Positions 4,645-61,824 are shown, numbered from the stretch's first letter. The stretch: 64,000 nt of DNA from Nitrospirota bacterium (GCA_021825295.1 JAKAHV010000003.1:22150-86149); one strand, 5' to 3'. Notes: a model not told the origin generated them from the sequence alone. Program-made: numbers and translations.

Positions 4645-4721
4645 TGGTGCCCCCTGCAGGAATCGAACCTGCGACACCAGGTTTAGGAAACCTGTGCTCT
4701 ATCCTACTGAGCTAAGGGGGC
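4645..4721 (-). tRNA. tRNA-Arg (CCT)
   Basis: Reverse complement GCCCCCTTAGCTCAGTAGGATAGAGCACAGGTTT-CCT-AAACCTGGTGTCGCAGGTTCGATTCCTGCAGGGGGCACCA. Confidence 0.96.
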
Positions 4722-4775: not shown

Positions 4776-4994
4776 GCCAAGGGCCTTCTTCAGATTTGTG
4801 GGGCAAGGCGGGGCATCTGCCAGTTCCTTCCGTTCAGCGCGCGGTTCCGGGCGTAAGTCCCGCCGCGGCGGGATTGCCGCTAAGGGCGAATATCAAGTCA
4901 TTGTTAAGATGCGGCCCGCCGTATCCGTCCGCTCTTCGCTTCTCTCCAGAAACAGGCAGATACCAGCCCCGCAAATCCGAAGAAAGCCCTTGGC
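4776..4994. repeat. Structured intergenic repeat family, copy 1
   Basis: Outer IR GCCAAGGGCCTTCTTCAGATTTGTGGGGC / GCCCCGCAAATCCGAAGAAAGCCCTTGGC; inner arms at about 4812-4827 and 4949-4964. Core GCGCGGTTCCGGGCGT...AGGGCGAAT...ATCCGTCCGC is shared with the copies at 39 kb and 59 kb. Confidence 0.8.
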
Positions 4995-5053
4995 CCTAAA
5001 AAGCCCCGGGGATGGTTTTTAAGGCGACCTAAACCTGTAGTTTTAATTTTTAC

Positions 5054-18176: not shown

Positions 18177-18425
18177 GGGATTCCTGCGGGCAGGTAGCTG
18201 GCATTCCCGGGGAATGCTGATATCCGTATGGTCCTTGAGGCAGGGAGTGAGCAGGACCCCCGCGTGGCTGAGTGTGAGGGATGGATGGAAAGTCCGGCGG
18301 CCGGCGCATGACACCGTCGGCCACCGGGAATTTTTCCCCCGTGGGTTCACGCGGTTTCCCGGCAGTGGAGGACTGATATCCGCCCGGTCCCGCGGTCAAA
18401 CGAAAGGACCGGGCGGATACTGGCA
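18177..18425. repeat. Structured intergenic repeat family, variant/composite copy
   Basis: 18177-18240 aligns with 59026-59092. 18373-18424 is arm CTGATATCCGCCCGGTCC, a short core remnant, then arm AAAGGACCGGGCGGATA. Confidence 0.65.
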
Positions 18426-32923: not shown

Positions 32924-33037
32924 ATGCCCCCATTTTCAATACCATCTGATATTTTGCATTAAAACCGGAAATTTCGGCAAGTTTTTTTACCCGCGGGCCT
33001 GCGTCAGATCTGTGGGGCAAGGCGGCAGGGAAAACTC

Positions 33038-38269: not shown

Positions 38270-38301
38270 ACTGGGTATATATACGTCTTTATGGGGAATC
38301 A

Positions 38302-38338
38302 GTCAAGGCAAATTGCAAAATTGTCAAGGCAAATTGCA
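38302..38338. promoter_or_regulatory. 16-bp direct repeat (21-bp period) in a divergent promoter region
   Basis: GTCAAGGCAAATTGCA at 38302-38317 and 38323-38338. Confidence 0.5.
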
Positions 38339-38484
38339 CAACCCGGATAAGCTCCGGCCCCGCCCGATAAGGAAATCATCAGCCGGATGTTTATGTATAC
38401 TATAGAAGAAACCGCGGAGGCATAAGTCCGCCCGTTTAACGGACGATAAAAATTGCGGCATGGAAGACCAATGAGGAGGCGCTG

Positions 38485-38982
38485 ATGGCTGACGAGCATT
38501 CTTTCGATATCGTATGCGAGGTGGACAAGCAGGAAGTGACCAACGCCGTGACCCAGGCCGTGAAAGAGATCGGCCAGAGGTTTGACTTCAAGGGCAGCAA
38601 AAGCTCAATCGAATTCGACAAGGGGAAAGGAACCATCACGCTTGTGTCCGACGATGAGCAGAAGATGAAGAGCGTCGTCGATATCCTCCAGTCAAAAATG
38701 GTGAAGCGCGGCATCGCGCTCAAGGCGCTCAGTTACGGCAAGCTTGAACCGGCGGCCGGCAACACGGTGAGGCAGGTCATCACGCTCCAGCAGGGCATCC
38801 CCCAGGAAAAGGCAAAGGAGATTGTCAAGCTCGTCAAAGACATGAAGCTTAAAGTAAGCCCGGAAATTCAGAAGGACCAGGTGCGCATCAGGGGGAAAAA
38901 GATAGACGATCTGCAGGCCATAATGACGCATCTGAAGGAAAAGGATTTCGGCATACACCTGCAGTTTTCAAATTACCGCTGA
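38485..38982 (+). CDS. yajQ: YajQ family nucleotide/c-di-GMP-binding protein
   Basis: SFDIV..VD.QEV.NA, RFDFKGS, GKKIDDLQ, QFSNYR; SD GAGGAGG. Confidence 0.95.
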   Translation: MADEHSFDIVCEVDKQEVTNAVTQAVKEIGQRFDFKGSKSSIEFDKGKGTITLVSDDEQKMKSVVDILQSKMVKRGIALKALSYGKLEPAAGNTVRQVITLQQGIPQEKAKEIVKLVKDMKLKVSPEIQKDQVRIRGKKIDDLQAIMTHLKEKDFGIHLQFSNYR

Positions 38983-39010
38983 GTGCGGATTAGGGCGGCA
39001 TCTGAAAATT

Positions 39011-39257
39011 ATTATCAGTCTCATAATAATTTGTACACTCCTCGCCCACTGATATCCGCCCGGCCCTTTCGTTCGGTCGCGCGGTTCCGGGCGTTACCAT
39101 GGCTATGTTGCCTCATCCCTAGGGCGAATGGCGAAAGGTCGTCAAGTTGCGACACGCTGTGATCCGTCCGCTTGCTCTCTCACTCAAGGACCGGGCGGAT
39201 ATCTGCCTTGCCATAAAGGGCGCAGGCATGATGTTATCCTATTAGGAGACTGTTAAT
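39011..39257. repeat. Structured intergenic repeat family, copy 2
   Basis: Outer IR ATTATCAGTCTCATAATA / TATTAGGAGACTGTTAAT (16/18 match). Inner arms 39051-39068 and 39186-39203 enclose the shared core. Confidence 0.82.
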
Positions 39258-40047
39258 ATTTCATCTCCAGCCAGGCGCGCCCGCTTCTCCAGCGCAGGGC
39301 TACGGGGACCCCGAAAAAAGAGGAGAGGTTCCCGGCCGTCAGGATTTTCCGGGTCTCGCCGGCGGAGTGTATCTGCCCGCCCTTTAAAAGAAGCACATGC
39401 GTGAAGACCGGCAGTATCTCCTCCAGGTGGTGGGTCACATAGATGAGGGTGAGGGGGGATTTCGCCGATGAGTTCGATTCGGCGAACCCGTGAACGCCGG
39501 CCAGGAATTCCTCTCTTGAAAAGAAATCCAGGCCGGTCGAGGGCTCATCCATTATCAGGAGCCTGGGGCGGCTCACGAGGGCCCGCGCTATAAGCACCTT
39601 CTGCTTTTCACCCTGCGACAGCGAGGAGTAATTATGCCCCGCCAGGGGACCGCACTTCAGTCTCTCCAGGATGGAGCGGGCCATGGCAATGTCCTTGCGG
39701 CGCGGAGAATCGTAAAGCCCGATGGTGCTGAATATGCCGCTTAGCACTATCTCCAGCGCGGTCTCTCCGCCGTAAAACCTTTCCTGCAGCGAGGAGCTTA
39801 TGAATCCGACTCTTTTCCTGAGCGCCCTCCAGTCGTATGCGCCGTAACGCCTGCCCAGCACCCGCATCACGCCCGATGAAAGCGGCACGTAGCCGTTCAG
39901 GAGGTTTAGCAGGCTGGTCTTGCCGGAGCCGTTCAGGCCCAGCACGGCCCAGTGCTCGCCGGCCCTCACAACCCAGTCTATCCCGCGCAAAAGCTCCGTG
40001 TCCCCCGTAATCGAGGAGGCCGCCTTAAGCTCTATGATCATCCGCAT
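39253..40047 (-). CDS. ABC ATP-binding protein (ModF/YlmA-like, stand-alone)
   Basis: GEHWAVLGLNGSGKT, LSQGEKQ, LIMDEP, YVTHH. Confidence 0.9.
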   Translation of the reverse strand: MRMIIELKAASSITGDTELLRGIDWVVRAGEHWAVLGLNGSGKTSLLNLLNGYVPLSSGVMRVLGRRYGAYDWRALRKRVGFISSSLQERFYGGETALEIVLSGIFSTIGLYDSPRRKDIAMARSILERLKCGPLAGHNYSSLSQGEKQKVLIARALVSRPRLLIMDEPSTGLDFFSREEFLAGVHGFAESNSSAKSPLTLIYVTHHLEEILPVFTHVLLLKGGQIHSAGETRKILTAGNLSSFFGVPVALRWRSGRAWLEMKY

Positions 40048-43858: not shown

Positions 43859-45085
43859 ATGGAAGACAAAAAACCGGAAAAGAGGAAAGCGGCAAAGGGC
43901 TCCGCCTACAGGCTCATCGTCCTCATGGGGATGGTGAGCCTTTTTGGCGACGTAACCTACGAGGGGGCAAGGAGCATCACGGGCCCGTATCTTGCCGTGC
44001 TTGGCGGCGGGGCTGCCATCGTCGGCCTCGTATCGGGCCTGGGAGATTTCCTTGGTTACGCCCTGCGCCTGGCCTCGGGATATATTGCCGACCGCACGAA
44101 GGCATACTGGCCGCTCACCTTCACCGGATACGCCCTGATATTCGCCATTCCCGCAATGGCGTTTGCCGGAAACTGGAAAATCGCCGCCCTGCTCATAGTG
44201 CTGGAACGGCTCGGAAAAGCGATAAGGACCCCCGCCAGGGACACGATACTCTCGCACGCTGCAAAGGAGGTGGGGCGGGGATGGGGGTTCGGACTCCATG
44301 AGCTTTTCGACCAGATCGGGGCGGTGCTCGGCCCCCTCATCTTCACTACCGTCTTCATCTTCCGTGGCAACTACCGCCAGGGTTTTGGCATCCTCTGGAT
44401 ACCGGCGGCCCTTGCAATGCTGTTTCTGGCCAGGGCCGCGATAAAGATGCCGTCTCCCGAGAAACTTGAAATCCAAAAAGCCGGCACGGGCGAGCGTGCG
44501 GACATCCTGAAAGAGGAGGAGTTGAAAAAACTGCCCCGCCTGTTCTGGTTTTATGCAATTTTCACGTTCTTCAGTGTGGCGGGGATAATGCATTTTCAGC
44601 TTATCGCGTTTCATTTGAAAGTGCAGCGTCTGGCCCCGGATGTGCTCATACCGGTGCTGTATATAATCGAGATGGCCGTGGACGGCGGCGCTGCGCTTGT
44701 GATGGGAAAGGCGTACGACACCGGGGGCATGAGGTTTCTCGTAATAGCGCCGCTGCTGTCGCTGCCCGTGGCATGGCTGTCGCTTTCCGGCGGTTTCGGA
44801 CTTGCGGTGGCAGGCATTGCATTCCTGGGCGTGGTCATAGGCATTCATGAGACCATCATGCGGGCCGCAATCGCGGACCTGACGGTCACCGCCAAAAGGG
44901 GTGTCGCTTACGGCATTTTCAACACCGTTTACGGGCTGGCTTATCTCGTGGGCGGGGTGACAATGGGCCTGCTCTACGAGAAGGTCTCCATTGCCGGCGT
45001 GGTCGCATTCTCAGCCGTCATGGAGGCGCTGGCCATATCGGTATTCGTTCTGACCGGCTTCTCGCGCCTGAAGGCCGCGAGGTAA
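43859..45085 (+). CDS. MFS transporter
   Basis: About 12 TM segments; SLFGDVTYEGARS, ERLGKAIRTPARD, DQIGAVLGP. Confidence 0.92.
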   Translation: MEDKKPEKRKAAKGSAYRLIVLMGMVSLFGDVTYEGARSITGPYLAVLGGGAAIVGLVSGLGDFLGYALRLASGYIADRTKAYWPLTFTGYALIFAIPAMAFAGNWKIAALLIVLERLGKAIRTPARDTILSHAAKEVGRGWGFGLHELFDQIGAVLGPLIFTTVFIFRGNYRQGFGILWIPAALAMLFLARAAIKMPSPEKLEIQKAGTGERADILKEEELKKLPRLFWFYAIFTFFSVAGIMHFQLIAFHLKVQRLAPDVLIPVLYIIEMAVDGGAALVMGKAYDTGGMRFLVIAPLLSLPVAWLSLSGGFGLAVAGIAFLGVVIGIHETIMRAAIADLTVTAKRGVAYGIFNTVYGLAYLVGGVTMGLLYEKVSIAGVVAFSAVMEALAISVFVLTGFSRLKAAR

Positions 45086-45105
45086 GAAGCCGGTCTTCTC
45101 AAGGC

Positions 45106-45140
45106 AAAAAAGGCCGGATGGCTTTTCCCCATCCGGCCTT
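45106..45140. terminator. Terminator hairpin between convergent genes
   Basis: AAAAAAGGCCGGATGG...CCATCCGGCCTT. Confidence 0.7.
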
Positions 45141-45167
45141 CTCATTTCAAGTGATTCCGGGAAACGG

Positions 45168-45464
45168 CTAGCAGCCCTCTATCATCCTCCTGGGCGGCGC
45201 TGCCGCTGCGGGCTTTACACTCGTGACCATGCCGTTTGAGACCACTATCTCGGCCTTGCCCGTCTTTATGCTCCTGATATTCAGGCCATGACCGACCTTC
45301 AGGTTCTGCTCCTTCGTGGTGCCGGCGGGGCAAAACGAGATCGTGCCGGCGCTGATGTTTACGGATTTTATCGTGCCGGACATGGATTTGGCCGCGGCGG
45401 CCGCCACGGCTACCAGAGACAACGTGAGGGCGATAAATACAAGAACAGTCAACGTCTTTTTCAT
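45168..45464 (-). CDS. Small secreted protein with C-terminal IEGC motif
   Basis: SD GGAGG, Sec signal peptide MKKTLTVLV...AAAAA, small beta-rich domain, tail PPRRMIEGC*. Confidence 0.8.
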   Translation of the reverse strand: MKKTLTVLVFIALTLSLVAVAAAAAKSMSGTIKSVNISAGTISFCPAGTTKEQNLKVGHGLNIRSIKTGKAEIVVSNGMVTSVKPAAAAPPRRMIEGC

Positions 45465-45609
45465 CCCATCCTCCTTTTTGGTTTTTAATGAATGCATGAA
45501 TTTCTGGACACTAATTTATCATATTTCCATAATTTTTTAAACCCCCGGTTTCCGTTTTTTGTTTTTCAAGGGGTTTCACATTGCTAGAGAAAAAGCCTTT
45601 GAAAAAAGC

Positions 45610-45642
45610 AAAAAACGGGGCCGGATCCGGCCCCGTTTTTTT
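45610..45642 (-). terminator. Intrinsic terminator downstream of glnA
   Basis: AAAAAACGGGGCCGGATCCGGCCCCGTTTTTT palindrome. Confidence 0.8.
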
Positions 45643-45665
45643 GTCCATTTCCCGCCAGGGACGGC

Positions 45666-47078
45666 TTATATGTCGTAGTAAAGGAAGAACTCGTAGGGAT
45701 GGGGCCTCAGCCTCAGGGCATCCACCTCGCTTTTCCTCTTGTAGTCCATCCAGGTCTCGAGCGCGTCCTCCGTAAAGACGCCGCCCTTGAGGAGGAATTT
45801 ATGGTCCTTCTCCAGGTTGTCAAGCGCCTGCTCAAGAGAGCCCGGCATCTGCGGCACTTTGGCAAGCTCCGCGGCCGACATCTCGAAGATGTCCTTGTCC
45901 AGCGGGGCGCCCGGTTTTATCTTGTTCTCTATGCCGTCAAGCCCGGCCATCAGCATGGCGGAAAAGGCAAGGTACGGGTTGCAGGAGGGGTCCGGGAACC
46001 TTACCTCCGCCCTTTTCGCCTTGGGGTTTTCGGAGTACATGGGTATCCTTACCGCGGCCGAACGGTTCCTGGCGGAATAGGCAAGGTTGACCGGGGCCTC
46101 GTACCCGGGCACGAGCCTCTTGTAGGAGTTCGTGGTCGGGTTGGTGAGGGCCGCCAGAGCCTGGGCGTGTTTCAGTATGCCGCCTATGTAATAAAGCGCC
46201 ATCTCGCTTAAGCCGGCGTATTCCTTGCCCGCAAACAGGGGCTTGCCGCCCTTCCAGAGGCTCTGGTGGACGTGCATGCCGGAGCCGTTGTCGCCGAACA
46301 CAGGCTTGGGCATGAAGGTGACCGTCTTTCCGTTTTTGACCGCCACGTTCTTTATGATGTATTTGAAGAGCAGCAGGTTGTCGGCCATTTTTAAAAGCGG
46401 CGAGAAGCGCATATCGATCTCGGCCTGGCCGGCGGTTGCGACTTCGTGGTGCTCCGCCTCCACATCTATGCCGCACTGCTGCATCACGGCGACCATTTCG
46501 CACCTGAGGTCCTCGATGCTGTCTGTCGGCGGGACCGGGAAGTACCCTTCCTTATACCTGGGCTTATATCCGAGATTGGGGTTTTCCTCCTTGCCGGAAT
46601 TCCAGATGCCTTCCTTTGAATCGAGGAAGTAATAGCCGCTGTGCGAAGTCTGATCGTACCTGATGTCGTCGAAGATGAAGAACTCCGCCTCCGGGCCGAA
46701 GAAGGCTGTGTCGGCGATGCCGGTGGACTTAAGATAATCTTCGGCCTTTTTGGCCACGTACCTGGGGTCCCTGGTATAGGGTTCCTTCGTCACCGGGTCT
46801 ATGATGTTGCAGACCAGGCTGAGCGTCGGATACTTCCTGAACGGGTCCAGTATGGCTGTGGCCGGGTCCGGCACAACCAGCATGTCGGAGGCGTGTATCG
46901 CCTGCCAGCCCCTTATCGAGGAGCCGTCAAAACCCAGGCCGTCCACAAAGGTCTTTTCGTCGATTTGGCTCACGGGCACGGCGAAGTGCTGCCATATGCC
47001 GGGGAAATCGATGAATTTCAGGTCGACCATCATGACCTTGTTCTTTTTCGCAAACTCCAGTACTTCCTTTGGCGTCAT
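45666..47078 (-). CDS. glnA: Glutamine synthetase type I
   Basis: [57 protein letters not shown]. Confidence 0.98.
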
Positions 47079-47141
47079 ATCTTCCTCCAGATTGGTTTTG
47101 GATGCCAGGCCAAAAAATGCCCGTTTTACCTGTGATTGTAA

Positions 47142-47193
47142 TCGGCAATAGATTGCCGAAGGTAGTATAGAAAAAGGCTTCTCACGGTGTCAA
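47142..47193 (-). promoter_or_regulatory. glnA sigma70 promoter with adjacent palindrome
   Basis: Minus strand TTGACA(47193-47188)-N18-TATACT(47169-47164), then TCGGCAAT-N2-ATTGCCGA at 47142-47159. Confidence 0.6.
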
Positions 47194-47245
47194 GCGGAAA
47201 AAAGTGCCGGAAAATACAAAAAAGTACGCTCCTCCGGGCATGCGG

Positions 47246-48280
47246 CTATTCGTACTTCACCCGGCCCGCGCCCTTCACGGCGCTGCCTATGACGGAGGAC
47301 TCATAACCCGCCTTCCGCAGGACCGAGACGGCCTTTTTCGCCTCTTCCGCCGGGGTTACGGCCACAAAGCCTATGCCCATGTTGAAGGCCTTCTTCATCT
47401 CCTCTTTCGAGATGCCGCCCGCCTCGCGGATGAGTCCAAAAATCGGAGGGGCGGTCCAGGCGCCTTCATCTACAAGGGCGTCTATCCTCCGGGGCAGTAT
47501 CCTGTTGAGGTTCCCCGGTATGCCGCCTCCCGTTATGTGCGCCATCCCCTTTACGGTCACCCTGTTTTTCCTCAGGGCCTGAAATGCCTTTACATATATC
47601 CTGGTCGGCTCAAGCAGCTCCGCGCCGAGACTCCGCCCGGCCAGAACGCGCGGCCGCGAGGCAAGCGAATAGCGGGCGGCCTCAAGAAGCGCCTTTCTTG
47701 CCAGCGAATAGCCGTTTGAGTGCAGCCCCGAGGAGGCAAGCCCTACCAGGGCGTCGCCGGGCCGGATGGAAGAGCCGTCTATTATGGCCTCTTTTTCAAC
47801 CACGCCCACGGCAAAGCCCGCCAGGTCGTATTCCCCCTCCCCGTAAAACTCAGGCATCTCGGCCGTCTCGCCGCCAACCAGGGCGCAGCCCGCCTCCTCG
47901 CATCCCCTCGCGATTCCCCCGATCACCATGGCGGCCTTCCTTGCCGCGAGCTTCCCCGTCGCGAAATAGTCCAGGAAAAAGAGCGGCTCGGCCCCGCAGG
48001 TGAGGATGTCGTTTACGCACATGGCCACAAGATCGATGCCGACCGTGTCGTGTCTGCCGGTCATGAAGGCGATCTTCAGCTTCGTGCCAACCCCGTCCGT
48101 GCCGCTTACGAGGACGGGGCGTTTGTATCTTTTCGCGTCCAGCTCGAAGAGCGCGCCAAAAAGGCCGATACCCTTCAGGACTTCCCTTCTTTTCGTCCTG
48201 CCGGCCATGGGGGCTATAAGCTCCACAAGCTTCTCGCCCTCTCTTATGTCGACGCCCGCCTTTTTATATGTCAAACCCAT
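47246..48280 (-). CDS. purM: Phosphoribosylformylglycinamidine cyclo-ligase
   Basis: [51 protein letters not shown]. Confidence 0.97.
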
Positions 48281-48360
48281 AAGAAACACCTTCCCCCTTT
48301 TGAAGAAACCCCGCCTTCAGCATGAAGCCATTTGGAAATCCATTAATGATACAATTAATC

Positions 48361-49131
48361 ATGAAAAAAATAATACTCGTCACAAATGACGACGGCGTCC
48401 ATTCCCCCGGCATAAAGGCCCTTTTCAGGGCGATGGAGCCAATCGGGGACGCGTACATGGTGGCGCCGGACAGGGAGCGCTCGGCCGTAAGCCATGCCCT
48501 TACTCTTCACAGGCCCCTGAAGGTGGAAAAGCTTGGGTCAAATGTCTGGAGCGTAAACGGCACCCCCACGGACTGTGTCGCCCTCGGGATAGAAAAGCTC
48601 CTTCCCCGAAGGCCGGACCTCATAGTGTCCGGCATTAACAGGGGGGGCAATCTGGGCGACGACATCACATATTCCGGGACCGTCTCGGCGGCAATAGAGG
48701 GGACTATTTTCGGGATAGCTTCCCTCGCCTTTTCCCTGCTGTCAGATGGCCCCCCGGACTCGAAACTCGACTATGGCACCGCCGCGCACCTGGCCCTGCA
48801 GGTCGCCCGGTTCACTCTTGAAAACGGACTGCCCTACGATACCCTTCTTAACGTGAATATCCCCAATGCCGCTATAAAAGGGGTACGGTTCACCAGGCAG
48901 TCCAAACGGATATATCACGGGGCCATACACGAGACCAAATCCCCGTGGGGAGAGGTCCACTACTGGATTGGAGGGGGCAAACCCTTCTGGGAGCGCGGAG
49001 ACGATACGGACATGGATGCCGTAATGGAGGGTTATGTATCGATAACCCCGATACACCTGGATTTCACAAACAACGCCGCGATGGACTGGCTAAAAAGGAA
49101 ATGGGGCGGGGACGGGTTTTCAGTTGGATGA
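48361..49131 (+). CDS. surE: 5'/3'-nucleotidase SurE
   Basis: ILVTNDDG, GTPTDCV, SGINRG.N, YSGTVSAA; start placed at ATG 48361. Confidence 0.96.
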   Translation: MKKIILVTNDDGVHSPGIKALFRAMEPIGDAYMVAPDRERSAVSHALTLHRPLKVEKLGSNVWSVNGTPTDCVALGIEKLLPRRPDLIVSGINRGGNLGDDITYSGTVSAAIEGTIFGIASLAFSLLSDGPPDSKLDYGTAAHLALQVARFTLENGLPYDTLLNVNIPNAAIKGVRFTRQSKRIYHGAIHETKSPWGEVHYWIGGGKPFWERGDDTDMDAVMEGYVSITPIHLDFTNNAAMDWLKRKWGGDGFSVG

Positions 49132-49771
49132 GTTCGTAGAGTTGCGCCGCCGGATGGTCGACATTCAGCTCATCGCGAGGGGGATAACGGATGAGAGGGT
49201 GCTCGATGCCATGGCCAGGGTCCCGAGGCACCTTTTCATGACCCCGGAGTATGCGGGCATGGCCTACAGCGATATGGCCCTGCCTGCGGGGGAGGAGCAG
49301 ACGGTCTCTCAGCCGTACATGGTTGCGGTAATGACCGAGGTGCTGGGTCTGAAAGGGGACGAGAGGGTCCTTGAGGTGGGCACGGGCTCCGGTTACCAGA
49401 CCGCGGTCCTCGCCGAGCTGGCCGGGGAGGTCTACACAATCGAATACCGCCCGAAACTGGCCGCGGCGGCAAAACGGAGGCTGGATGAGCTTGGTTACGC
49501 CAACATAAGGTTCATGACCGGAGACGGCTCCCTTGGATGGCCGGAGGCAGCCCCCTTCCAGGGCATCCTTGTGACCGCCGGCGCCCCGGCCGTGCCGCCT
49601 CCGCTGGTGGAGCAGCTCGATGAGGGCGGCATTATGGCCATCCCCATAGGGCCCAGGGACTCCCAGAGGCTGCTGAGGGCAAAAAAACAGCGCGGGCGGC
49701 TCATCGAGGAATATCACACCTTCTGCGTCTTCGTCCCCCTCCTGGGAGAGTACGGCTGGCACGATGCCTGA
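49124..49771 (+). CDS. pcm: Protein-L-isoaspartate O-methyltransferase
   Basis: VPRHLF, QTVSQP, VLEVGTGSGYQTA, GDGSLGW, FVPL; follows surE. Confidence 0.96.
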   Translation: MDEFVELRRRMVDIQLIARGITDERVLDAMARVPRHLFMTPEYAGMAYSDMALPAGEEQTVSQPYMVAVMTEVLGLKGDERVLEVGTGSGYQTAVLAELAGEVYTIEYRPKLAAAAKRRLDELGYANIRFMTGDGSLGWPEAAPFQGILVTAGAPAVPPPLVEQLDEGGIMAIPIGPRDSQRLLRAKKQRGRLIEEYHTFCVFVPLLGEYGWHDA

Positions 49772-49890
49772 GGGGTAAAAGGGCCCGTTACATTTGACAC
49801 CCCACGCTTTTTTATATAGCATTTTGTTGAGGACAGAGTAAAAAACCCTGGATTTTTTCCCAAGGACGCATCACGTCAGGGAGGTGCCGG

Positions 49891-50082
49891 ATGATAACCA
49901 TCGAAATCGACGAGGAGGAGAAAGGGATACTCAGGCACGCGCTGGAGATATACCTTTCGGATTTAAGGGAGGAGATTTACAAGACCGAAAGCCACGAGAC
50001 GAAACCCCCGCTCAAAAAAGAGGAAACGATAATCAAGGGGCTTCTGAGGAAGATCGAAGCCGTCAAGGAGGCGGGAGTGTAG
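49891..50082 (+). CDS. Small hypothetical protein (63 aa)
   Basis: SD GGGAGG and upstream TTGACA; charged helical sequence (YLSDLREEIYKTE). Confidence 0.7.
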   Translation: MITIEIDEEEKGILRHALEIYLSDLREEIYKTESHETKPPLKKEETIIKGLLRKIEAVKEAGV

Positions 50083-50088
50083 GGGAAA

Positions 50089-50871
50089 TCAGGGGTTCGA
50101 AAGCTGCAGCCTCGAGACGGAAGACGCCCTTCCGTCTTTTTCGTTTATCTCAACCAGCAGGGCCGACAGCAGCGCCCCGCCTGCGGGGATTTCAAACCTT
50201 GTGGGCATCTGGGTGAGGAACTTGCCCACTATCTGCTCCTTTTTTACCCCTATGACCGATTCGGCGGGTCCAGTCATCCCGGCGTCCGTGATGTACGCCG
50301 TGCCGCCTGGCAGTATCTTTTCATCGGCGGTCTGGACATGGGTATGCGTCCCGATGACCGCGCTGACCTTGCCGTCAAGGAAGTAGCCCAGCGCGGTCTT
50401 CTCGGATGTGGCCTCGGCATGAAAATCCACGATGATACTGGCTGTGCGCTGCCTGAGCCGTTTCGCCTCATCCAGGGCGGCCCGGAAGGGACAGTCTATG
50501 GCCGGCATGAATACACGCCCCTGAAGATTGATCACGGCCAGGACGCCCGCGCCCGGCACCTCCGCCACGACGCTGCCGAAGCCTGGCACGCCGGGCGGAA
50601 AGTTAAGCGGCCTGAGCAGCCTGTCGTCTTTCGTGATAAAGGGGATTATCTCTTTCTTGTCCCAGATATGGTTGCCGCTGGTGATGATGTTTATGCCGGA
50701 GGCGAACAGCTCGGAGGCGGAGGACTCGGTTATTCCGAAACCGCCGGCGGCGTTCTCCCCGTTTGCGATGACGAAATCGACTTTATATCTTTCGATTATA
50801 CGGGGCAGAAGGGCCCTCACCGCAGTCCGGCCCGGCTTGCCGACGATGTCTCCGATGAAAAGGACCTTCAC
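50089..50871 (-). CDS. ymdB: YmdB/TIGR00282 metallophosphoesterase
   Basis: GDIVG, NGEN, TSGNH, DFHAEATSEK, GTHTH; directly downstream of rny. Confidence 0.95.
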   Translation of the reverse strand: MKVLFIGDIVGKPGRTAVRALLPRIIERYKVDFVIANGENAAGGFGITESSASELFASGINIITSGNHIWDKKEIIPFITKDDRLLRPLNFPPGVPGFGSVVAEVPGAGVLAVINLQGRVFMPAIDCPFRAALDEAKRLRQRTASIIVDFHAEATSEKTALGYFLDGKVSAVIGTHTHVQTADEKILPGGTAYITDAGMTGPAESVIGVKKEQIVGKFLTQMPTRFEIPAGGALLSALLVEINEKDGRASSVSRLQLSNP

Positions 50872-50889
50872 GGTTTCGCTGAGCTGAGG

Positions 50890-52437
50890 CTATTTGGCGT
50901 AGTCAACGAACCTGTTTTCCCGGATGACGGTCACCTTTATCTGGCCTGGATAAGTCATCTCGGCCTCAATCCTCTTGGCCAGGTCCTTTGAGAGCATCCA
51001 CGAGGCTTCGTCCGTAACCTCCTCGGGCTTTACTATTATGCGGACCTCACGGCCCGCCTGAATGGCGTAGCACTTCTCCACGCCCTTGTAAGACATGGCC
51101 AGGTCTTCAAGCTTGGCCAGCCTCTTCAGGTAATTTTCTATACTCTCGCTCCTCACACCCGGCCTCGCGGCAGAGATGGCGTCCGCGGCGGCAACGAGCG
51201 CGGCCTCCACCGTCTTCACCTCGCCGTCATGGTGGGTGAGTATCGCGTCCACCACGATCTGGGGTTCACCGTATTTCCTGGCCAGGTTGGCGCCTATTTC
51301 GGGGTGCGGGCCCTCGACCTCATGGTCCACGGCCTTGCCAAGGTCGTGCAGGAGCCCGGCCCTTTTGGCGATCTTTACATCGACGCCCAGCTCGGAGGCC
51401 ATGATGCCGGAGAAATACGCCACTTCCCTTGAATGCTGAAGCACGTTCTGGCCGTATGAGGTCCTGTACCTGAGCCTGCCTATCAGTTTTATCACCTCCG
51501 GGTTCATGCCGGAGAGACCAAGCTCGAAGACCGCCTTTTCCCCTTCTTCCCGGATGGTGTTTTCCACTTCCTTCCGGCAGCGTTCGACAATCTCCTCGAT
51601 CCTGGCGGGATGTATACGGCCGTCGGCGATCAGCCTCTCCAGGGCAAGCCTGGCAACTTCTCTCCTGACTGGGTTGAAAGTGGAGAGGGTTATGAGCTCC
51701 GGCGTGTCATCGACTATAAGATCAACCCCCGTGGCCGCCTCGAGGGCGCGGATGTTCCTGCCCTCGCGCCCGATTATCCGGCCTTTCATGTCGTCGCTGG
51801 GCAGGCTCACGGCGGAGACGGTCGCATCGGCCACATATTCCCCCGAATACCGCTGCACCGCCAGCCCGATGATCTCCTTTGCCTTCTTCTCGGCGCCCTC
51901 GCGCGCCTCGTCCTCTACCTGTTTTGCTAGCTTCGCGGACTCAAAGCGGGCGTCTTCCTCCACCTTCCTTAAAAGCTCCGCCCTGGCCTCCTCGGCGCTG
52001 AGCCCCGCCAGCCTCTCCAGAAAACTCTTCTGCTGGCCGATAACCTCATCGAGCTGCTTTTCCTTGCCCTGAAGCCCTCGTTCCCTGGCCGCAAAATCCT
52101 TCTCTCTGCGGGAAAACTCACGTTCCCTGTGCTCCTGGTGGTCCAGCTTCCTTTCGAGGGTCTCCTCTCTGGCCCTGAGCCTTTTCTCCTGGTGCAGGAG
52201 CTCTCCTCGCTTTTCCTTGATTTCCTTCTCCGCTTCGGTGCGCGCCTGGTAAAGTATGCCCTTGGCCTCGTACGACGCGTCCTTTTTTATCCTTTCGGCA
52301 GTGCTCTGGGCTTCCGCGGCGAGGGCTTCGGCTTCGCGCCTCATACTCTCCCATTTGTTCTTGAGACTGAATCTGTAAACAAGGCCGACGGCAACGCCCA
52401 CGGCAGCAGCAATTACAACATAGAGCGCCTGGATCAT
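50890..52437 (-). CDS. rny: Ribonuclease Y
   Basis: N-terminal TM, coiled coil, KH domain ([13 protein letters not shown]), HD domain (LLHDLGK), AIQAGRE; SD GGAGGGAG before ATG 52437. Confidence 0.97.
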
Positions 52438-52630
52438 CTGAAACTCCCTCCTCTCCTTTATGTGCATAGGGAGGCGGACGAAGTTCTATGGGACGGGTTT
52501 CTGCCCTTCAGCTCTCAGCCCGAAGGCCCGGGGAGATATCCGAAGGGGATCTATATTTTGCTTTAAAATTCAAAATTTTCTTACCTTTCCCCTTTATGCT
52601 GAAGGCGGTTTCGCCAGCGCCATAGAATAA

Positions 52631-52809
52631 GACCCACCCTGCCGTGCAAGCGAAAGCGTTAGATCCACTTGTTCCAAGTGGGTGCCCAAAGGGGGACATC
52701 AGGCTATCTTCAACTGGGAAGACATGCACACCGTACCCCCTTATCCAGCTCCCTAAAGATCTAACTTGGTGGATTAACATCATCCCTTGTCACGCGCAGG
52801 GCAGGCTCC
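52631..52809 (-). ncRNA. ssrS: 6S RNA
   Basis: About 180-nt rod with closing stem CCTGCCCTGCGCGTG / CACGGCAGGGTGGG and central AGGGAGC...CACCCAC; sits upstream of rny, a known 6S position. Confidence 0.8.
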
Positions 52810-52929
52810 AATTTTGTCCGACCCCTTTATCCTTTTATAGCAGAAAATAACGTTTTTTGGCAATCAAAATTGATTGGGGGCGCGGGCGGCGCGTTGTTTT
52901 TAATTGCTTGTTTATGTTAATTTCTCTGA

Positions 52930-53478
52930 ATGGTAAAAAATGACCGCTGGATAAAGGAAATGGCGATGAAGGGCATGATAGAGCCCTTCGCCGACAGGAT
53001 GCTGGTGAAGACGGGGATATCATTCGGCCTGGGCTCATACGGCTACGACATGAGACTTTCCGAGGATTTCAAGCTCCTGAAACCCGGCAACGGGGCCGTA
53101 CTGGACCCCAAAAACTGCGATGCCGCATATTTCGAGGCGATAAAAGGCCCCAGTTGCGTCATTCCGTCCGGCTCTTTCGTCCTTGGCCGTTCGCTCGAAT
53201 ATTTCAGGCTGCCCAGGGACATAATCGTCTTAAGCACCGGGAAATCGACCTACGCCAGATGCGGGGTCATAGTAAACGTCACACCGCTTGAGCCCGAGTG
53301 GCAGGGATACGTGACAATCTGTGTCGCCAACACCGGGCCGTTGCCGGTGAAAATCTACGCTGGAGAGGGGATATCCCAGCTGGTCTTTCTCGGCGCAAGC
53401 GAGGCCTGCCAGGTCTCCTACGCGGACAAAGCTGGGAAATACCAGGCCCAAAAAGAGATAACCCACTCAAGGACATAG
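52930..53478 (+). CDS. dcd: dCTP deaminase
   Basis: ISFGLGSYGYD, GKSTYARCG, TPLEPEW, YADKAGKYQ. Confidence 0.95.
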   Translation: MVKNDRWIKEMAMKGMIEPFADRMLVKTGISFGLGSYGYDMRLSEDFKLLKPGNGAVLDPKNCDAAYFEAIKGPSCVIPSGSFVLGRSLEYFRLPRDIIVLSTGKSTYARCGVIVNVTPLEPEWQGYVTICVANTGPLPVKIYAGEGISQLVFLGASEACQVSYADKAGKYQAQKEITHSRT

Positions 53479-53544
53479 GATGCCCGTTTGCGGCAGGACC
53501 GCCGTTGACTGTCTGCGCGCAGACAGGGGCATCACCCGGTAAGC

Positions 53545-55092
53545 ATGATCAGGGAAGCGGTTTCACTCACCAAGGCGGCGTTCCTGGAAGAAATCGAAAA
53601 GGCAGCGGGGGCCGTGCCGCCTCTCCATCTGAAAATCCCCTATGCCAGCCCGCATGAGCTCTATCCCGCCTTTCCCGGGCGGGGCAGTCTGCTTTTTGAA
53701 AGCGTAAAAGGTCCGGAAAACATAGCGAGGCATTCCTTCATAATCTTCGAGCCTTACGCCTGCCTGGTGGTGAAAGACGGGCTTGTGGAGGTCGAATGGG
53801 GCGGCAAGCGGGCCATATCCTCGAAAAAAGATCCGCTTGGAAGGCTCGAAGAGCTGATGGGCGCATATAACCAAAAGCCCGCGGCCGGGCTTCCGCCGTT
53901 TCAGGGAGGCGCGGCCGGGCTTATCTGCTACGACTTCGCCAGGTACCTTGAAACGTTCCCCGATAATGGCCCCCCCGACGAACTCGGCCTGCCCGATGCC
54001 TGTTTTTTCATGGCCGACCGCCTGCTCGCCTTCGACCATGTCCGGAGGGAGGCATGGATCGTGGTCTGCCCCGGGGCAAGGCATGCAGCTTTCGCCCTGG
54101 GTTACGGCGGCGCGCCTGTCCCGGATTGGGCCGAAAGCTATGATGAGGCCGTGGAGCAACTGGGACGCATCCTGGAGCGGACGGCCCGGCGCACCCAAAG
54201 CCCCGCCCCCCTGGCCGGAGGCGCAATAAACATAGAGCATGAGATGAGTGAAAGCCGGTACGTTCAGATGGTCGGCAGGGCAAAGGAATACATAGCCGCG
54301 GGCGATATATTCCAGGCAAACCTTTCACTGCGTGTGCGCGCGCAGATCGGGCGGACGGACCCATGGGGGGTATACTGCCTGCTCAGGGAAATAAACCCCT
54401 CCCCTTTCGCGGCCTTCATGGATTTCGGGGATTTCTTCGTAGCCGGATCCTCCCCGGAGAGGCTGGTAAAGCTGGCCGGCGGCGTGGTCGAAACCAGGCC
54501 GATAGCCGGGACAAGGCCAAGGGGCAAAGACGCACGGGAGGACCTCGCCCTCAGGTCGGAACTGCTCCTCAATGAAAAGGAGAAGGCCGAGCACATAATG
54601 CTGATCGACCTCGAAAGAAACGACATGGGCAGGGTGGCCGGATACGGCAGCATCGAGGTAAACGAGCTCATGACAACGGAGGATTATTCGCACGTCATGC
54701 ACATCGTGTCGAACATAAGGGGCAGGCTCGCCGGCGGCAGGGGGATGTTCGACTGCCTGCGCGCGACTTTTCCGGGCGGCACGATAACGGGCGTGCCAAA
54801 GGTGCGGTGCATGGAGATCATAAACGAGCTTGAACCGGCAAGGAGGGGGCCCTACACGGGCTCGGCCGGATATTTCGGCTTCTCAGGCGCAATGGACATG
54901 AACATAGTGATAAGGACATTCCTCATCAAAAACGGCATGGCATATGCCCAGGCCGGGGCCGGCATCGTGGCGGACTCCGTCGCTGAAAGGGAATACAGGG
55001 AAAGCATGAAAAAGGCAGAGGCCCTGCTCATGGCGCTCAAAATGGCCGGCGGAGGCGGCAGGGGGCGGAAAACGGACCGCATTCGCCAATGA
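53545..55092 (+). CDS. Chorismate-binding anthranilate synthase component I / PabB family protein
   Basis: LFES, GDIFQANLS, SSPE, TRPIAGTRPR, EHIMLIDLERND, PGGTITGVPK, RTF. Confidence 0.88.
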   Translation: MIREAVSLTKAAFLEEIEKAAGAVPPLHLKIPYASPHELYPAFPGRGSLLFESVKGPENIARHSFIIFEPYACLVVKDGLVEVEWGGKRAISSKKDPLGRLEELMGAYNQKPAAGLPPFQGGAAGLICYDFARYLETFPDNGPPDELGLPDACFFMADRLLAFDHVRREAWIVVCPGARHAAFALGYGGAPVPDWAESYDEAVEQLGRILERTARRTQSPAPLAGGAINIEHEMSESRYVQMVGRAKEYIAAGDIFQANLSLRVRAQIGRTDPWGVYCLLREINPSPFAAFMDFGDFFVAGSSPERLVKLAGGVVETRPIAGTRPRGKDAREDLALRSELLLNEKEKAEHIMLIDLERNDMGRVAGYGSIEVNELMTTEDYSHVMHIVSNIRGRLAGGRGMFDCLRATFPGGTITGVPKVRCMEIINELEPARRGPYTGSAGYFGFSGAMDMNIVIRTFLIKNGMAYAQAGAGIVADSVAEREYRESMKKAEALLMALKMAGGGGRGRKTDRIRQ

Positions 55093-55119
55093 ACGGGTTA
55101 TTTTGGATATAATAGGTCG

Positions 55120-56043
55120 ATGAAAAAGGCCTTTATTGCCGTCTTTCTGCTGGCCATGCTGGCGCCGCCCTGCGCGGCCTGGGCCGGCAACACGGTAGGG
55201 GTCATACTGACGAGGGGGAACCCCTTGTATGAGGACTCTTATAACGCCCTTGCCAAATATGTGTCCGGCCCCTCCCACGGTGGGATAAGATTCCTGTTGC
55301 TGAGACCCTACCCGGACCCCATATCCTGGAGCAACTCGGCAAGGAAACTTATAGCCGTCGACGTCAACGCGATAGTCACTTTCGGGGCGTCGGCCACCTT
55401 CGCGGCCCTCAGGGAAAACCCGGGGGTTCCGGTGATATACGCCGGCCTCACCAGGACGACCGCCGCAATGATAAAGGGGAAAAACGCCGCCGGGGTATAC
55501 AGTTCGCTTCCGCTTGCCAGCGTTATCCGGTATCTCAAGGATATCCGCGCAACCAGGACCCTCGGGATTCTTTACGACAGCAGGGAGGCGGACTCGGCGT
55601 ACGATACGGCGGAAATCGCCAGGGTCGCAAAAGAATACGGAATGAACCCTGTCAGGCTGAACCTCGTAAAGTCCGGAGAGGTCGCCTCGCTTCTTGCGGG
55701 CGCAAAGATAGACTCCCTTTACGTGACGGAATGCGCGACGGCCGGCTCCGCATACCAGTCGGTCCTCGGAGAGATGTGGCGCAGAAAGATACCCGTGGCC
55801 TCGCTTATCAGCAACCCACAGCAGCCGGCGCAGGCCCTTATAACACTTTCTCCCGATCCGCAGGAGCAGGGACAGATGGCCGGACAGCTTCTGCTTCAGG
55901 CCCTCGAGAGGTCTTCGGCGCGCGGCCTGGGGCCGCTTGAAAGCAGGCGCTTCTCATTGATCTATAATTACAGGCAGTCCGTGGTATTGGGCCTCAGGAT
56001 CTCCCTGGGCCTGGTCACGGAGGCAACCCGGGTGATTTACTGA
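55120..56043 (+). CDS. Periplasmic ABC-type substrate-binding protein (ABC_sub_bind-like)
   Basis: Signal peptide; PVIYAG, TLGILYD and EQGQMAG segments typical of COG2984-like binding proteins. Confidence 0.7.
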   Translation: MKKAFIAVFLLAMLAPPCAAWAGNTVGVILTRGNPLYEDSYNALAKYVSGPSHGGIRFLLLRPYPDPISWSNSARKLIAVDVNAIVTFGASATFAALRENPGVPVIYAGLTRTTAAMIKGKNAAGVYSSLPLASVIRYLKDIRATRTLGILYDSREADSAYDTAEIARVAKEYGMNPVRLNLVKSGEVASLLAGAKIDSLYVTECATAGSAYQSVLGEMWRRKIPVASLISNPQQPAQALITLSPDPQEQGQMAGQLLLQALERSSARGLGPLESRRFSLIYNYRQSVVLGLRISLGLVTEATRVIY

Positions 56044-56924
56044 TGTTGAGAAAGATAATGCTTGCGATCGTTCTGGTGCTGTCGGCGGCATCCATTGCCC
56101 GGGCGCAGGAGAAGGTAACGCTCCTTATAGGGCTTGTCCCGGAGGAGAATATATTCCGCATGATAGAAAAGCACCTGCCCCTCGCCGACTACATAGAGAA
56201 AAGGACCGGAATAAAAATCCAGTTCACGATACTCTCCCGCTATGGGGATATCATCGACCGCTTCACGAGCAGGAATATGGACGGGGCGTTCTTCGGCGCC
56301 TTCACCGGCCTGCTGGCCAACCGCAAACTGGGGGTCCAGCCGCTGGTCCGGCCTGTCGGACCCGACGGGCTCGTGTCGGCCCAGAGCATCGTCATTGTAA
56401 GGAAAGACAGCGGGATAAGGACGTTCTCCCAGTTGAGGGGCAAGCGGGCCGTCTTCGTCGACAAGGCGACGGCCACCGGTTTCATCTACCTGCTTTACCG
56501 CCTCAAACAGATAGGAGTCACCGATTACGCCAGGTTCTTTCCCCAGTACTACTTCACCGGCAACCACGAGGAGTCCATATACGCCGTCCTGGACGGCAGG
56601 GCGGATGTCGGGGTGGTCAAGAGCCGCTTCTTCGACAAGCTCTCCGCCAGGGACCCCCTGGTTTCCGAAAACCTCCTCGTCCTGGCAAAGTCAGGCAAAC
56701 TGCCCGACATCATCCTCTGCCTGAGGAAGAACATACCCGCGGCGATACGAAATGAACTCAAGAGTACCCTGATAAACATGAAGAACGACCCCGACGGGGT
56801 CAGGGTGCTGAAGACCCTGGGGTACTCGGGATTCGAGGAAGCCAACCTGGCCGATTTCGCCCCGGTCGCGGCCCTCACAAGGGACGCGGGCATAAACATA
56901 ATGAAGTATCAGTACACCAGATGA
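56043..56924 (+). CDS. Phosphate/phosphite/phosphonate (PhnD-like) substrate-binding protein
   Basis: Signal peptide; IVRKDSGI...LRGK..VFVDKATATG, GNHEESIYAVLDGRADVG. Confidence 0.85.
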   Translation: MLRKIMLAIVLVLSAASIARAQEKVTLLIGLVPEENIFRMIEKHLPLADYIEKRTGIKIQFTILSRYGDIIDRFTSRNMDGAFFGAFTGLLANRKLGVQPLVRPVGPDGLVSAQSIVIVRKDSGIRTFSQLRGKRAVFVDKATATGFIYLLYRLKQIGVTDYARFFPQYYFTGNHEESIYAVLDGRADVGVVKSRFFDKLSARDPLVSENLLVLAKSGKLPDIILCLRKNIPAAIRNELKSTLINMKNDPDGVRVLKTLGYSGFEEANLADFAPVAALTRDAGINIMKYQYTR

Positions 56925-58972: not shown

Positions 58973-59025
58973 ACCCGGAATTGGATTGCCACCCGCCGGG
59001 CGATGACTGAAAAAAGGGCTCTTCA

Positions 59026-59270
59026 GGAATGCCTGTGGGTAGATCGCTGAGATTTCCGGGAGTATAAGGCTGATACCTGCCTGGTCCTTGAGAGAGATAG
59101 CAGGCGGACGGATCACGACGCGCCGCATCCTGCCAATCTTTCGCCATTCGCCCTCGAAGACGATCTAAATCCCGCCGTCTGGATACGTCCGGAACCGCGC
59201 GACCGGACGAAAGGGCCTGGCAGGTATCGGCAAGCGCGAAATATGCAAATTATTTTTGAGACTGCTGATA
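59026..59270. repeat. Structured intergenic repeat family, copy 3 (opposite orientation to copies 1 and 2)
   Basis: Arms at 59069-59089 and 59211-59231. Reverse complement contains GTCGCGCGGTTCCGGACGT...AGGGCGAATGGCGAAAG...GTGATCCGTCCGC; outer end CAGTCTCA.AATAATTTG matches copy 2. Confidence 0.82.
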
Positions 59271-59294
59271 ACCCACACAAAAGCCAGAAGAGCC

Positions 59295-59331
59295 AAAAAA
59301 AGACGCCATGCCAGGGCATCAGCCGGCGTCT
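59295..59331 (-). terminator. Probable asd terminator
   Basis: AGACGCC...GGCGTCT hairpin followed by a T tract on the minus strand. Confidence 0.55.
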
Positions 59332-59365
59332 GTTCTTATCTGAAGCGAATCCCTGCGGTCCGGGG

Positions 59366-60394
59366 CTATGCCATCCCGATGAGTTTTTCGGCTATCTGGA
59401 CGGCGTTCAGGGCCGCGCCTTTCCTCAAATTGTCCGAGACGAGCCACAGGTTGAGGCCGTTTTCAATCGATTCGTCTTCCCTGATCCTGCCCACGAAAGT
59501 CTCATCCTTTCCGGCCGCGTATATGGGCAGCGGATAGATGTTTTTCTCCGGCGCGTCATAGACGATGACGCCGGGCGCAACCGAAAGCACAGCCCTGGCC
59601 TCGCTGGCGGACAATTTCTTTTCCGTCTCGATGTTCACGCTCTCGGAATGGCCCCTGAAGACCGGCACCCGCACGGTGGTCGCCGTCAGCCTGATGCTCG
59701 AGTCCCCCATGATCTTCTTCGTCTCGTTGACCATCTTCATCTCTTCCTTGGTGTAGCCGTTTTCAAGGAACTTGTCTATGTGGGGCAGCACGTTGAAGGC
59801 TATCTGGTGCGGGTAGACCTTGCAGGAGACGTCCTGGAAACTCAAAAGGGCCCTCGTCTGCTCAAGCAGCTCATCCATGGCCTTCCTGCCAGTGCCGGAA
59901 ACCGCCTGGTAGGTGCTGACGACCACCCTTTTTATCCTTGCCGCGTCATGGATGGGTTTCAGGACCACGACCATCTGGATGGTCGAGCAGTTGGGATTGG
60001 CTATTATCCCCTTGTGCCATTTAAGGTCGTGCGGGTTTACTTCCGGCACCACCAGGGGCACCTCCGGGTCCATGCGCCACTGGCTGGAGTTGTCCACGAC
60101 TACGCAGCCGCTTGCCGCGGCGACGGGCGCCCACTTCGCGGACCTCTCCGCTCCGGCTGAAAAAAGCGCTATGTCCAGGCCCTTGAAGGAGTCATCCTTG
60201 AGCGTCTCGACAACGACATCCCTCCCCATGAAAGGAAGCCTTTTCCCCTCAGAGCGCTCGGAGGCAAAAAGCCGGAGGCCCCGGACGGGAAATTTCCGTT
60301 GCTCCAGGACCTCTATCATCTCGTTTCCGACGGCGCCGGTCGCGCCGACCACCGCCACGTTGTATTTATCTTTCCTTTTAAGCATGCGCTTCAA
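59366..60394 (-). CDS. asd: Aspartate-semialdehyde dehydrogenase (start may be ATG 60385)
   Basis: VVGATGAVG, DNSSQWR, ANPNCSTIQ, YQAVSG, DNLRKGAA. Confidence 0.97.
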   Translation of the reverse strand: MKRMLKRKDKYNVAVVGATGAVGNEMIEVLEQRKFPVRGLRLFASERSEGKRLPFMGRDVVVETLKDDSFKGLDIALFSAGAERSAKWAPVAAASGCVVVDNSSQWRMDPEVPLVVPEVNPHDLKWHKGIIANPNCSTIQMVVVLKPIHDAARIKRVVVSTYQAVSGTGRKAMDELLEQTRALLSFQDVSCKVYPHQIAFNVLPHIDKFLENGYTKEEMKMVNETKKIMGDSSIRLTATTVRVPVFRGHSESVNIETEKKLSASEARAVLSVAPGVIVYDAPEKNIYPLPIYAAGKDETFVGRIREDESIENGLNLWLVSDNLRKGAALNAVQIAEKLIGMA

Positions 60395-60525
60395 ACGCTC
60401 CTTGAATATGTATTGAAAAACTTGAATTTTATATTAGCGCAATTTAAACCGTACAGGCAAGGAACTTTCTGGCGCGGGCCCCTTGACGCCATGCGGGACG
60501 CGGCATATTCGCAAATGGCGCCCCT

Positions 60526-60570
60526 AAAAAAAATACAGGGAGTCAGCCGATATCCAAGGCCGACCCCCTG
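60526..60570 (-). terminator. Terminator downstream of the sulfurtransferase operon
   Basis: Minus strand CAGGGGGTCGGCC...GGCTGACTCCCTG followed by TA and a T8 tract. Confidence 0.7.
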
Positions 60571-60585
60571 AAATGGAGGGAGTGC

Positions 60586-61536: not shown

Positions 61537-61580
61537 TTTCTCCTTTCACCCGATATGACTGTCTTTTTTCGTACTCCCCA

Positions 61581-61823: not shown

Positions 61824-61824
61824 T

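Follow-up and report, generated by a model that had tools for sequence, protein, structure and literature searches.

Three copies in the window and their insertion sites

The window, a 64,000-nt stretch of contig C22 of the source genome (a Nitrospirota bacterium assembly, here G000), contains three related intergenic stretches, at 4776-4994 (plus strand), 39011-39257 (plus strand) and 59026-59270 (reverse orientation). The first-pass annotation had singled out these three places as copies sharing blocks in a fixed order, and exact block counts, alignment and a covariance model all confirm it: GCGCGGTTCCGGRCGT occurs exactly three times in the window, solely in the three copies (3 exact matches, 7 at ≤3 mismatches), as does ATCCGTCCGC (3 exact matches, 12 at ≤1 mismatch), and the copies align with a mean column identity of 72%, with the same block order and a variable insert between blocks. 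The core of each copy was placed by cmsearch with a covariance model built in this analysis (R1).

The 4.8-kb copy is a whole element of 209 bp (4781-4989, plus strand) of the type we call A below, with inverted ends GGGCCTTCTTCAGATTTG... and ...CAAATCCGAAGAAAGCCC (end pair C22:26931-27137) and a degenerate target duplication (5/8). Its core (4813-4963, plus strand; 120.5 bits, E 8e-28) is made up of the outer stem P1, the invariant P2 blocks, a variable hairpin and a non-palindromic centre. Empty orthologous sites had been suggested as a check, and this copy provides one: in the congener G002 the site is exactly empty, with the flanks abutting at G002:C64 13816/13817, so that the ~246 nt present here are an insertion in the source genome. 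The block missing from G002 in the pairwise alignment spans 4781-5027 (plus strand) and consists of the element plus ~38 nt containing a CCCCGGGG hairpin and then a T run. This additional segment (4990-5027), past the end of the element, lies between a tRNA-Arg gene (4645-4721, minus strand) and the next ORF.

The 59-kb copy is a type-B whole element of 278 bp (59017-59294, minus strand) with inverted ends GGCTCTTCTGGCTTTTGTGTGGG and CCCACAGGCATTCCTGAAGAGCC (end pair C22:81166-81443); its core occupies 59073-59227 (minus strand; 160.5 bits, E 1.1e-37), and BLAST finds at least five other copies ~96% identical to it. On the element's strand, the upstream copy of the target-site duplication, CTTTTTTT (59295-59302, minus strand), is 7/8 identical to the downstream copy read in the flank, CTTTTTTC (59009-59016, minus strand), and CTTTTTTT sits within the T run of a terminator-like hairpin. 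At the corresponding place G002 has 158 unrelated nt, compared with 432 nt in the source genome: the element is absent and the junction has diverged. The sequencing runs recorded as containing the window stretch are four DNA runs of one mine-drainage study, with no RNA run among them. In the contigs of these runs that fall on 44001-64000, summed depth is ~tenfold higher over 58675-59341, as expected for a repeat, and none of the 15 joints listed (of 60) skips the 59-kb element. Several other features were recorded in this part of the window. A 6S RNA gene lies at 52627-52810 (minus strand; its 77.7 bits exceed the gathering threshold of 46.4), and contigs of run X4 carry variant letters at 60023-60041. 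A 95-nt 'tRNA-???' with a four-base anticodon, called by ARAGORN at 59941-60035 (plus strand), is probably false, and Rfam gives nothing there at E values up to 1.

The 39-kb copy (39011-39257, plus strand) is an older form in a degenerate B-like shell, as judged from the flank alignment (row C22/61194-61361). Its core is well preserved in the model search (39052-39202, plus strand; 151.5 bits, E 1.8e-35), and neither clear ends nor a duplication can be read in its aligned flanks. In each of G002, G003 and G010 the left and right flanks fall on separate contigs; either this copy marks a synteny break or its site cannot be judged. From the copy rightwards to 59 kb the window keeps the gene order of G002 contig C86 (collinear), and the copy may mark the point of a rearrangement (window 38300-39900).

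The two partial copies that had been reported alongside the full ones could also be accounted for. One is an internally deleted derivative, a 45-nt remnant (18376-18420, minus strand; cmsearch 36.5 bits, E 4e-7), in which the outer-stem arms are linked via a ~15-nt loop, with remnants of a B-type shell on either side. The other is a solo type-A end, GGGCCTGCGTCAGATCTGTGGGGCAAGGCGG, at 32995-33025 (plus strand), followed by unrelated sequence (BLAST match C22:55144-55174, and the end scan).

Shells, target duplications and the extent of the family

When the flanks of all near-full copies are aligned, the core is seen to lie within outer shells bounded by inverted repeats; these terminal repeats were read on more than 60 copies. 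Type-A ends are GGGCCTGCGTCAGATTTGTGGGGC and its complement, type-B ends are GGCTCTTCAGGCTTTTGTGTGGG ... CCCACAGGAATCTGAAGAGCC, and a third shell, type C, begins CTAGTGTAGCGTCCC. The same core occurs inside shells A, B and C in the source genome and in A and B shells in both G001 and G010, and has other flanks again in G002. Matches to the type-A end number 81 in the source genome, 60 of them adjoining a core; for the type-B end the corresponding numbers are 61 and 24, and 37 type-B-like ends lie away from any core. We also observed a second, core-less MITE family of ~290-310 bp in the source genome; its ends are GGCTCTTCAGGGTTTAGTATGGG ... CCCACAGAAAACCCGGTAGAGCC, and the 8-bp duplications around it are perfect and AT-rich (for example C12:2904-3208, C39:28265-28575, C63:22430-22739 and C22:931-1097).

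Elements with readable ends are commonly flanked by short direct repeats. Direct repeats of 8 bp (at least 7/8 identical) flank 8 of the 10 elements with type-B ends examined, 6 of which belong to the second, core-less family with the same ends, compared with 0/10 at three control offsets. Among type-A elements, 12 of 23 have 8-bp duplications at the same threshold, 9 of them perfect, while permuting the partners in 200 trials gave a mean of 0.1 and a maximum of 2. The flanking 8-mers vary from copy to copy, and they are therefore target duplications rather than part of the element.

These duplications bear on one alternative, that the family is a REP/REPIN-like palindrome spread by a Y1 transposase (RAYT or IS200-type) acting on single-stranded DNA hairpins. 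REPINs and REPs are likewise high-copy and intergenic, and the compensatory changes in their arms are interpreted as selection on single-stranded structure; our family shares the hairpin arms with compensatory changes, the high copy number and the intergenic location. In addition, the source genome encodes two Y1_Tnp proteins (C12:80256-80573, plus strand, and C22:15540-15863, minus strand). However, Y1/HUH transposition is not known to leave a target duplication, and the copy-specific 8-mers at 8/10 and 12/23 elements, together with GG...-type inverted repeats like those of DDE elements, argue against such an enzyme. REPINs are, moreover, shorter, have no target duplication and are paired with a RAYT gene, which is normally flanked by its own repeats, whereas the distance from each of the two Y1 genes to the closest member of the present family exceeds 11 kb. 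We consider spread by a Y1 enzyme extremely improbable. The Y1 gene on C22 (IS200/RAYT-type) is situated ~6.3 kb before the start of the window, and a 638-bp repeat beside it is common to C15:11524-12161.

The first-pass annotation predicted many more copies genome-wide, and the prediction was correct. The source assembly (2.89 Mb, 65 contigs, 57% G+C, 91% complete) contains 105 nhmmer matches after two rounds, of which 75 cover nearly the whole profile, and many family members are found at contig ends. Full copies measure 209-278 bp, elements bounded by scanned ends 167-311 bp genome-wide, and cores 144-173 nt with length differences that are not multiples of three; as in a MITE, the element is short (<~500 bp) and, judging from its sequence, non-coding. 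The type-A subfamily, which includes the 4.8-kb copy, has ~25 copies that are ~90% alike; copies of the type-B subfamily, which includes the 59-kb copy, are ~96% alike; and the 39-kb copy is ~80% similar to the others. Two further repeats of this assembly were seen in passing. Contigs C11, C18, C24 and C48 share segments of 4.3-6.9 kb at ~89% identity, possibly a diverged multi-copy region or a strain mixture. A tandem repeat at C12:78715-79668 has 6.8 copies of a 141-nt unit with 87% matches; the unit is a multiple of three, and therefore the repeat is probably a protein repeat.

Outside the source genome the family is narrowly distributed. In 151 genomes sampled from the order, a pattern of three blocks is found in four: the source genome has 53 matches, its congeners G002 and G001 have 9 and 6, and G010, which belongs to a neighbouring genus, has 4. 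With the covariance model the copies number 58 in G001, 18 in G002 and 21 in G010, and 0 in both G003 and G008. A loose three-block pattern, run on one genome per species, matched at least 78 loci; nhmmer identified 19 of the 78 listed as true, all of which, among the matches listed, lie in four 'Nitrospirae bacterium' assemblies, and rejected the other 59, mostly chance matches. The bursts in copy number are thus restricted by lineage. No Rfam family was found at the copies in a whole-window scan at gathering thresholds, and permissive scans of the individual copies gave for one copy a best score of 16 bits (threshold 38), for another no match and for the third a single match at 15.9 bits (threshold 87), in line with the earlier judgement that this is no named Rfam family. 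A plasmid blastn search with the 59-kb copy returned nothing, and we found no description of the element in the literature. This is a previously undescribed MITE family from an uncultured mine-drainage lineage.

Mobility follows from the inverted repeats, the 8-bp duplications, the empty orthologous site and the lineage-restricted bursts. The family thus has the ends, the fixed 8-bp duplication and the dispersed copies with an empty site that mark a MITE, and a cognate autonomous element was not found in the genomes searched (see below). The three stretches in the window are probably copies of an ISL3-type MITE whose core is not conserved as an RNA gene.

The hairpin core: constraint and the question of RNA

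In the 153-nt core, a covarying 17-bp stem (P1) is accompanied by an invariant, interrupted 7-bp stem (P2), by a small hairpin of variable sequence and by a centre that is not palindromic. We aligned 69 copies from four genomes by fitting them to the covariance model. In this alignment 16 of the 17 P1 pairs show changes on both sides, with 89% of cells paired, and on an unfitted MAFFT alignment the number is 13 of 17; the arms do diverge between copies while keeping their pairing, as had been proposed from the three window copies. The covariation of the whole structure was reached in none of 500 shuffles and slid controls were 32-46% paired, both controls being lenient in that the alignment is model-fitted and the sequences are related. 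The variable hairpin Pv (AGACG...CGTCT) has changed on both sides at all 5 pairs, with 74% of cells paired, and the small hairpin H3 at 2 of 4 pairs.

The inner stem P2 (GCGG-TTC-CGG / CCG-T-CCGC) behaves differently from P1. The GCGG / CCGC pairing, noticed earlier in all three window copies, is possible in every copy (97-99% paired), and the stem is almost invariant, with one compensatory change, from G-C to C-G, in 3 sequences of a divergent subfamily. A competing inner helix, H2 (CGTTCGG/CCGGRCG), has 0/7 pairs changed on both sides in the MAFFT alignment, and P2 was preferred; a further helix, H4, has 1/4 and was dropped. A mini-hairpin, TCCCGCC-N(3-6)-GGCGGGA, lies within the variable region of several copies (for example at window 4859-4874). 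Of its 12 genomic occurrences, 5 fall within family members, at differing positions of the element, and it may be a small nested palindrome.

A structure of this kind invites the question of whether the core is a functional structured RNA, either a multicopy small RNA or a cis module altering the stability or termination of neighbouring transcripts, that was captured by several MITE shells. The covariation of P1 (16/17) and Pv (5/5) and the compensatory change in P2 speak for it, as do the recurrence of the core within at least three shells of unrelated outer sequence and the invariance of its 10-nt blocks over ~200 copies, drawn from four genomes that represent two genera. However, covarying arms in a transposon are not by themselves a sign of RNA, because selection at the level of the element or repair of DNA hairpins can also yield them, and hairpin-preserving changes are expected of DNA hairpins as well. 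Folding gives the RNA reading little encouragement: pair probabilities averaged over 57 non-redundant copies predict the outer stem alone, on either strand, and RNAalifold gives -2.55 kcal/mol for the forward strand (a first run, on HMM columns, gave -4.8 forward and -14.8 reverse).

The first-pass annotation had placed the wobble pairs on one consistent strand, which holds for P1 and fails for the inner hairpins. Non-Watson-Crick cells in P1 comprise 87 A.C against 29 G.T over 57 copies, and 90 against 50 in the 69-copy alignment, an A.C cell being U.G on the reverse strand of the alignment (minus at 4.8 and 39 kb, plus at 59 kb). This near-uniformity of the high-frequency P1 mismatches, nearly all C.A and hence U.G on one strand, would fit an RNA. 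These frequent mismatches are, however, confined to about five column pairs and therefore represent few events, and the two inner hairpins, Pv and H3, lean the opposite way (47 G.T against 36 A.C, and 77 against 24). The helices conflict, and the asymmetry singles out no transcribed strand. Nor do the surroundings of the copies indicate a single transcribed strand: the orientation of 75 copies relative to flanking long ORFs, taken from crude ORF picks, shows no significant bias (++ 20, -- 12, -+ 20, +- 12, with 10 inside an ORF call and 1 at a contig edge), and no promoter-like site turned up when the 59-kb copy was scanned. With no Rfam match either, we regard the captured-RNA explanation as unlikely. 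The initial proposal of a structured ncRNA or a mobile element carrying a functional RNA is thus borne out in its mobile element, by the ends, duplications, empty site and bursts, whereas folding, wobble and orientation count against the functional RNA; there is only a slim chance that the element has such a role.

If the core is probably not an RNA gene, could its conserved blocks simply come from recent common descent, with the matched arms ancestral, in a plain repeat that is decaying without constraint? Subfamilies that are 90-97% identical do indicate recent bursts, and many copies are truncated, internally deleted or interrupted. Against this, blocks of 7-10 nt (GCGGTTCCGG, GGGCGAA and TCCGTCCGC) show little or no variation even among copies whose remaining sequence has diverged by 25-30%, in other genera too, and the arms differ on both sides at 13-16 of the 17 pairs between subfamilies, which neutral decay of a palindrome does not yield. 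We then defined conserved columns solely from 32 copies of the three relatives and examined them in 25 type-A copies of the source genome. The conserved columns hold low-frequency variants (≤2 copies) at 8 of 869 site-copies and the remaining columns at 80 of 2823, an odds ratio of 0.32 (p 8e-4); for singletons alone the values are 8/869 and 48/2823, which is not significant (p 0.11). The depletion of low-frequency variants hints at constraint that is unexpected for a purely selfish, decaying repeat, and it is one more point on which the RNA explanation can draw. Unconstrained decay is, on this evidence, highly unlikely.

Something selects on the core, because it is found in at least three different shells and is conserved across two genera. 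Selection on the copies that serve as sources is clear. The core is also conserved more strongly than the outer ends, whereas recognition by a transposase alone would predict the opposite. There is some small likelihood that the core is a portable functional module, either RNA or single-stranded DNA (e.g. a protein-binding platform), that was taken up by at least three unrelated shells and is under purifying selection in ~200 copies and two genera. Such a module would take the form of a hairpin with the invariant, interrupted GCGG-UUC-CGG / CCG-U-CCGC stem and the invariant motif AGGGCGAA. Were this true, it would be a bacterial case of functional nucleic-acid cargo spread by MITEs.

Likeness to ISL3 elements and meaning for the lineage

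Returning to the preferred reading, an ISL3-type MITE, it is instructive to compare the ends of the family with those of ISL3-family insertion sequences. We made this comparison against ISL3 elements of related genomes, with the general end consensus of the ISL3 family as background, and found a resemblance in both the ends (GGTTCTTC...) and the 8-bp duplication. The closest element, in G029, is flanked by an 8-bp direct repeat, TATTTAAA, and carries an open frame of 422 aa between its ends, GGTTCTTCGCTGATTTGAGTGGG / GGTTCCTCGCTGATTTAGGTGGG; its end and the type-B end agree in 19 of 25 aligned columns, compared with 16 of 24 for type A and 8 of 25 for type C. The ISL3 element of the congener G002 ends in GGTTCTTTCGCAAAAAAGTTGAAA, which matches the type-B end at just 11 of 25. 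The type-B ends (GG(C/T)TCTT...) and the duplication are therefore ISL3-like, type A less closely so and type C not. ISCg1, the ISL3-family member of C. glutamicum, is reported to have an 8-bp target with an AT-rich centre (PMC8715038).

The mobiliser itself was sought in the source genome and 40 relatives. The ISL3 transposase domain PF01610 is present in 9 of these 41 genomes, the congener G002 included, and has 0 matches in the source assembly, where the G029 ISL3 protein also has 0 (the assembly is 91% complete, and repeats often go unassembled); PF01609 gave no match there, and self-BLAST of the assembly revealed no multicopy element of IS size. The first-pass annotation had proposed looking for a transposase flanked by the same ends: ISL3 elements with similar ends exist in relatives, but among the 41 genomes none has identical ends, the best being the G029 element with its 19 of 25 columns. 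None of the six ISL3 loci retrieved contains the MITE ends, exactly or nearly so, and a comparison of the core with these loci revealed no similarity (best E 0.54). A further abundant repeat of the source genome, GAACCTATCTCAAAAT (142 occurrences at ≤2 mismatches) with GAAGCGAAAGAGAGAGG (58), adjoins several family members; its end, ...CTCTTTCGC..., resembles that of the G002 ISL3 element, and it may be a further ISL3-type MITE.

Together, these observations suggest how the family may have spread. As a MITE, the element is a short, non-coding DNA transposon relying on a transposase made elsewhere. This is most likely a DDE transposase of ISL3 type, for which the terminal inverted repeats would be the binding sites (GGCTCTTCAGGCTTTTGTGTGGG in type B and GGGCCTGCGTCAGATTTGTGGGGC in type A). 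We infer such an ISL3 enzyme as the mobiliser; it would have inserted the element, 210-280 bp long, at further intergenic sites, many of them AT-rich, duplicating 8 bp of target. The 153-nt core would in turn be maintained through selection on the element lineage, possibly as a DNA hairpin, or as a site for a host or transposase protein, that aids transposition or persistence; alternatively, repair within the hairpin may keep the arms matched.

The family can be set beside several known kinds of repeat. ISL3 elements and the MITEs derived from them have ends of the same kind (GG(C/T)TCTT, then ...TTTG.GTGGG) and the same 8-bp, often AT-rich, duplication. The present element differs from them in having no transposase gene of its own, with none of ISL3 type in the source assembly, in an interior unrelated to that of the ISL3 elements fetched, and in type-C ends that are unlike ISL3. 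Correia elements (NEMIS) of Neisseria and ERIC/IRU sequences of enterobacteria are intergenic repeats of 100 to 200 bp in about a hundred copies; they are imperfect palindromes forming long hairpins, with subfamilies and internal insertions at fixed places, as is also the case here. The target duplication of Correia elements is TA, and they contain promoters and an IHF site, while ends, a duplication and a mobiliser are not known for ERIC; compared with these descriptions, the 8-bp duplication and the ISL3-like ends belong to the family reported here. The Tn3-derived inverted-repeat miniature elements (TIMEs) are characterized as non-autonomous elements moved in trans that insert into AT-rich DNA, with 5- or 6-bp duplications and Tn3-type ends (PMC4133298). 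The two families are alike in being non-autonomous and in their AT-rich targets, and differ in the 8-bp duplication and ISL3-type ends found here.

For the annotation of this lineage the consequences are practical. The repeat breaks assembly, with many copies at contig ends, and marks at least one synteny break; its insertions lie beside terminators and tRNA genes, and annotators should mask it and not call an RNA gene. The element is a MITE of the ordinary bacterial repeat kind, and the family provides a clean example of an ISL3-type burst, with ~100 copies in one genome and ~20-60 in three relatives. Its unusual feature is a hairpin core that is more conserved than the transposase-binding ends and that recurs in different shells. 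If the conservation of this core reflects a function of the hairpin, whether in transposition or as DNA or RNA, it would help to explain the long-hairpin form that many bacterial MITEs take.
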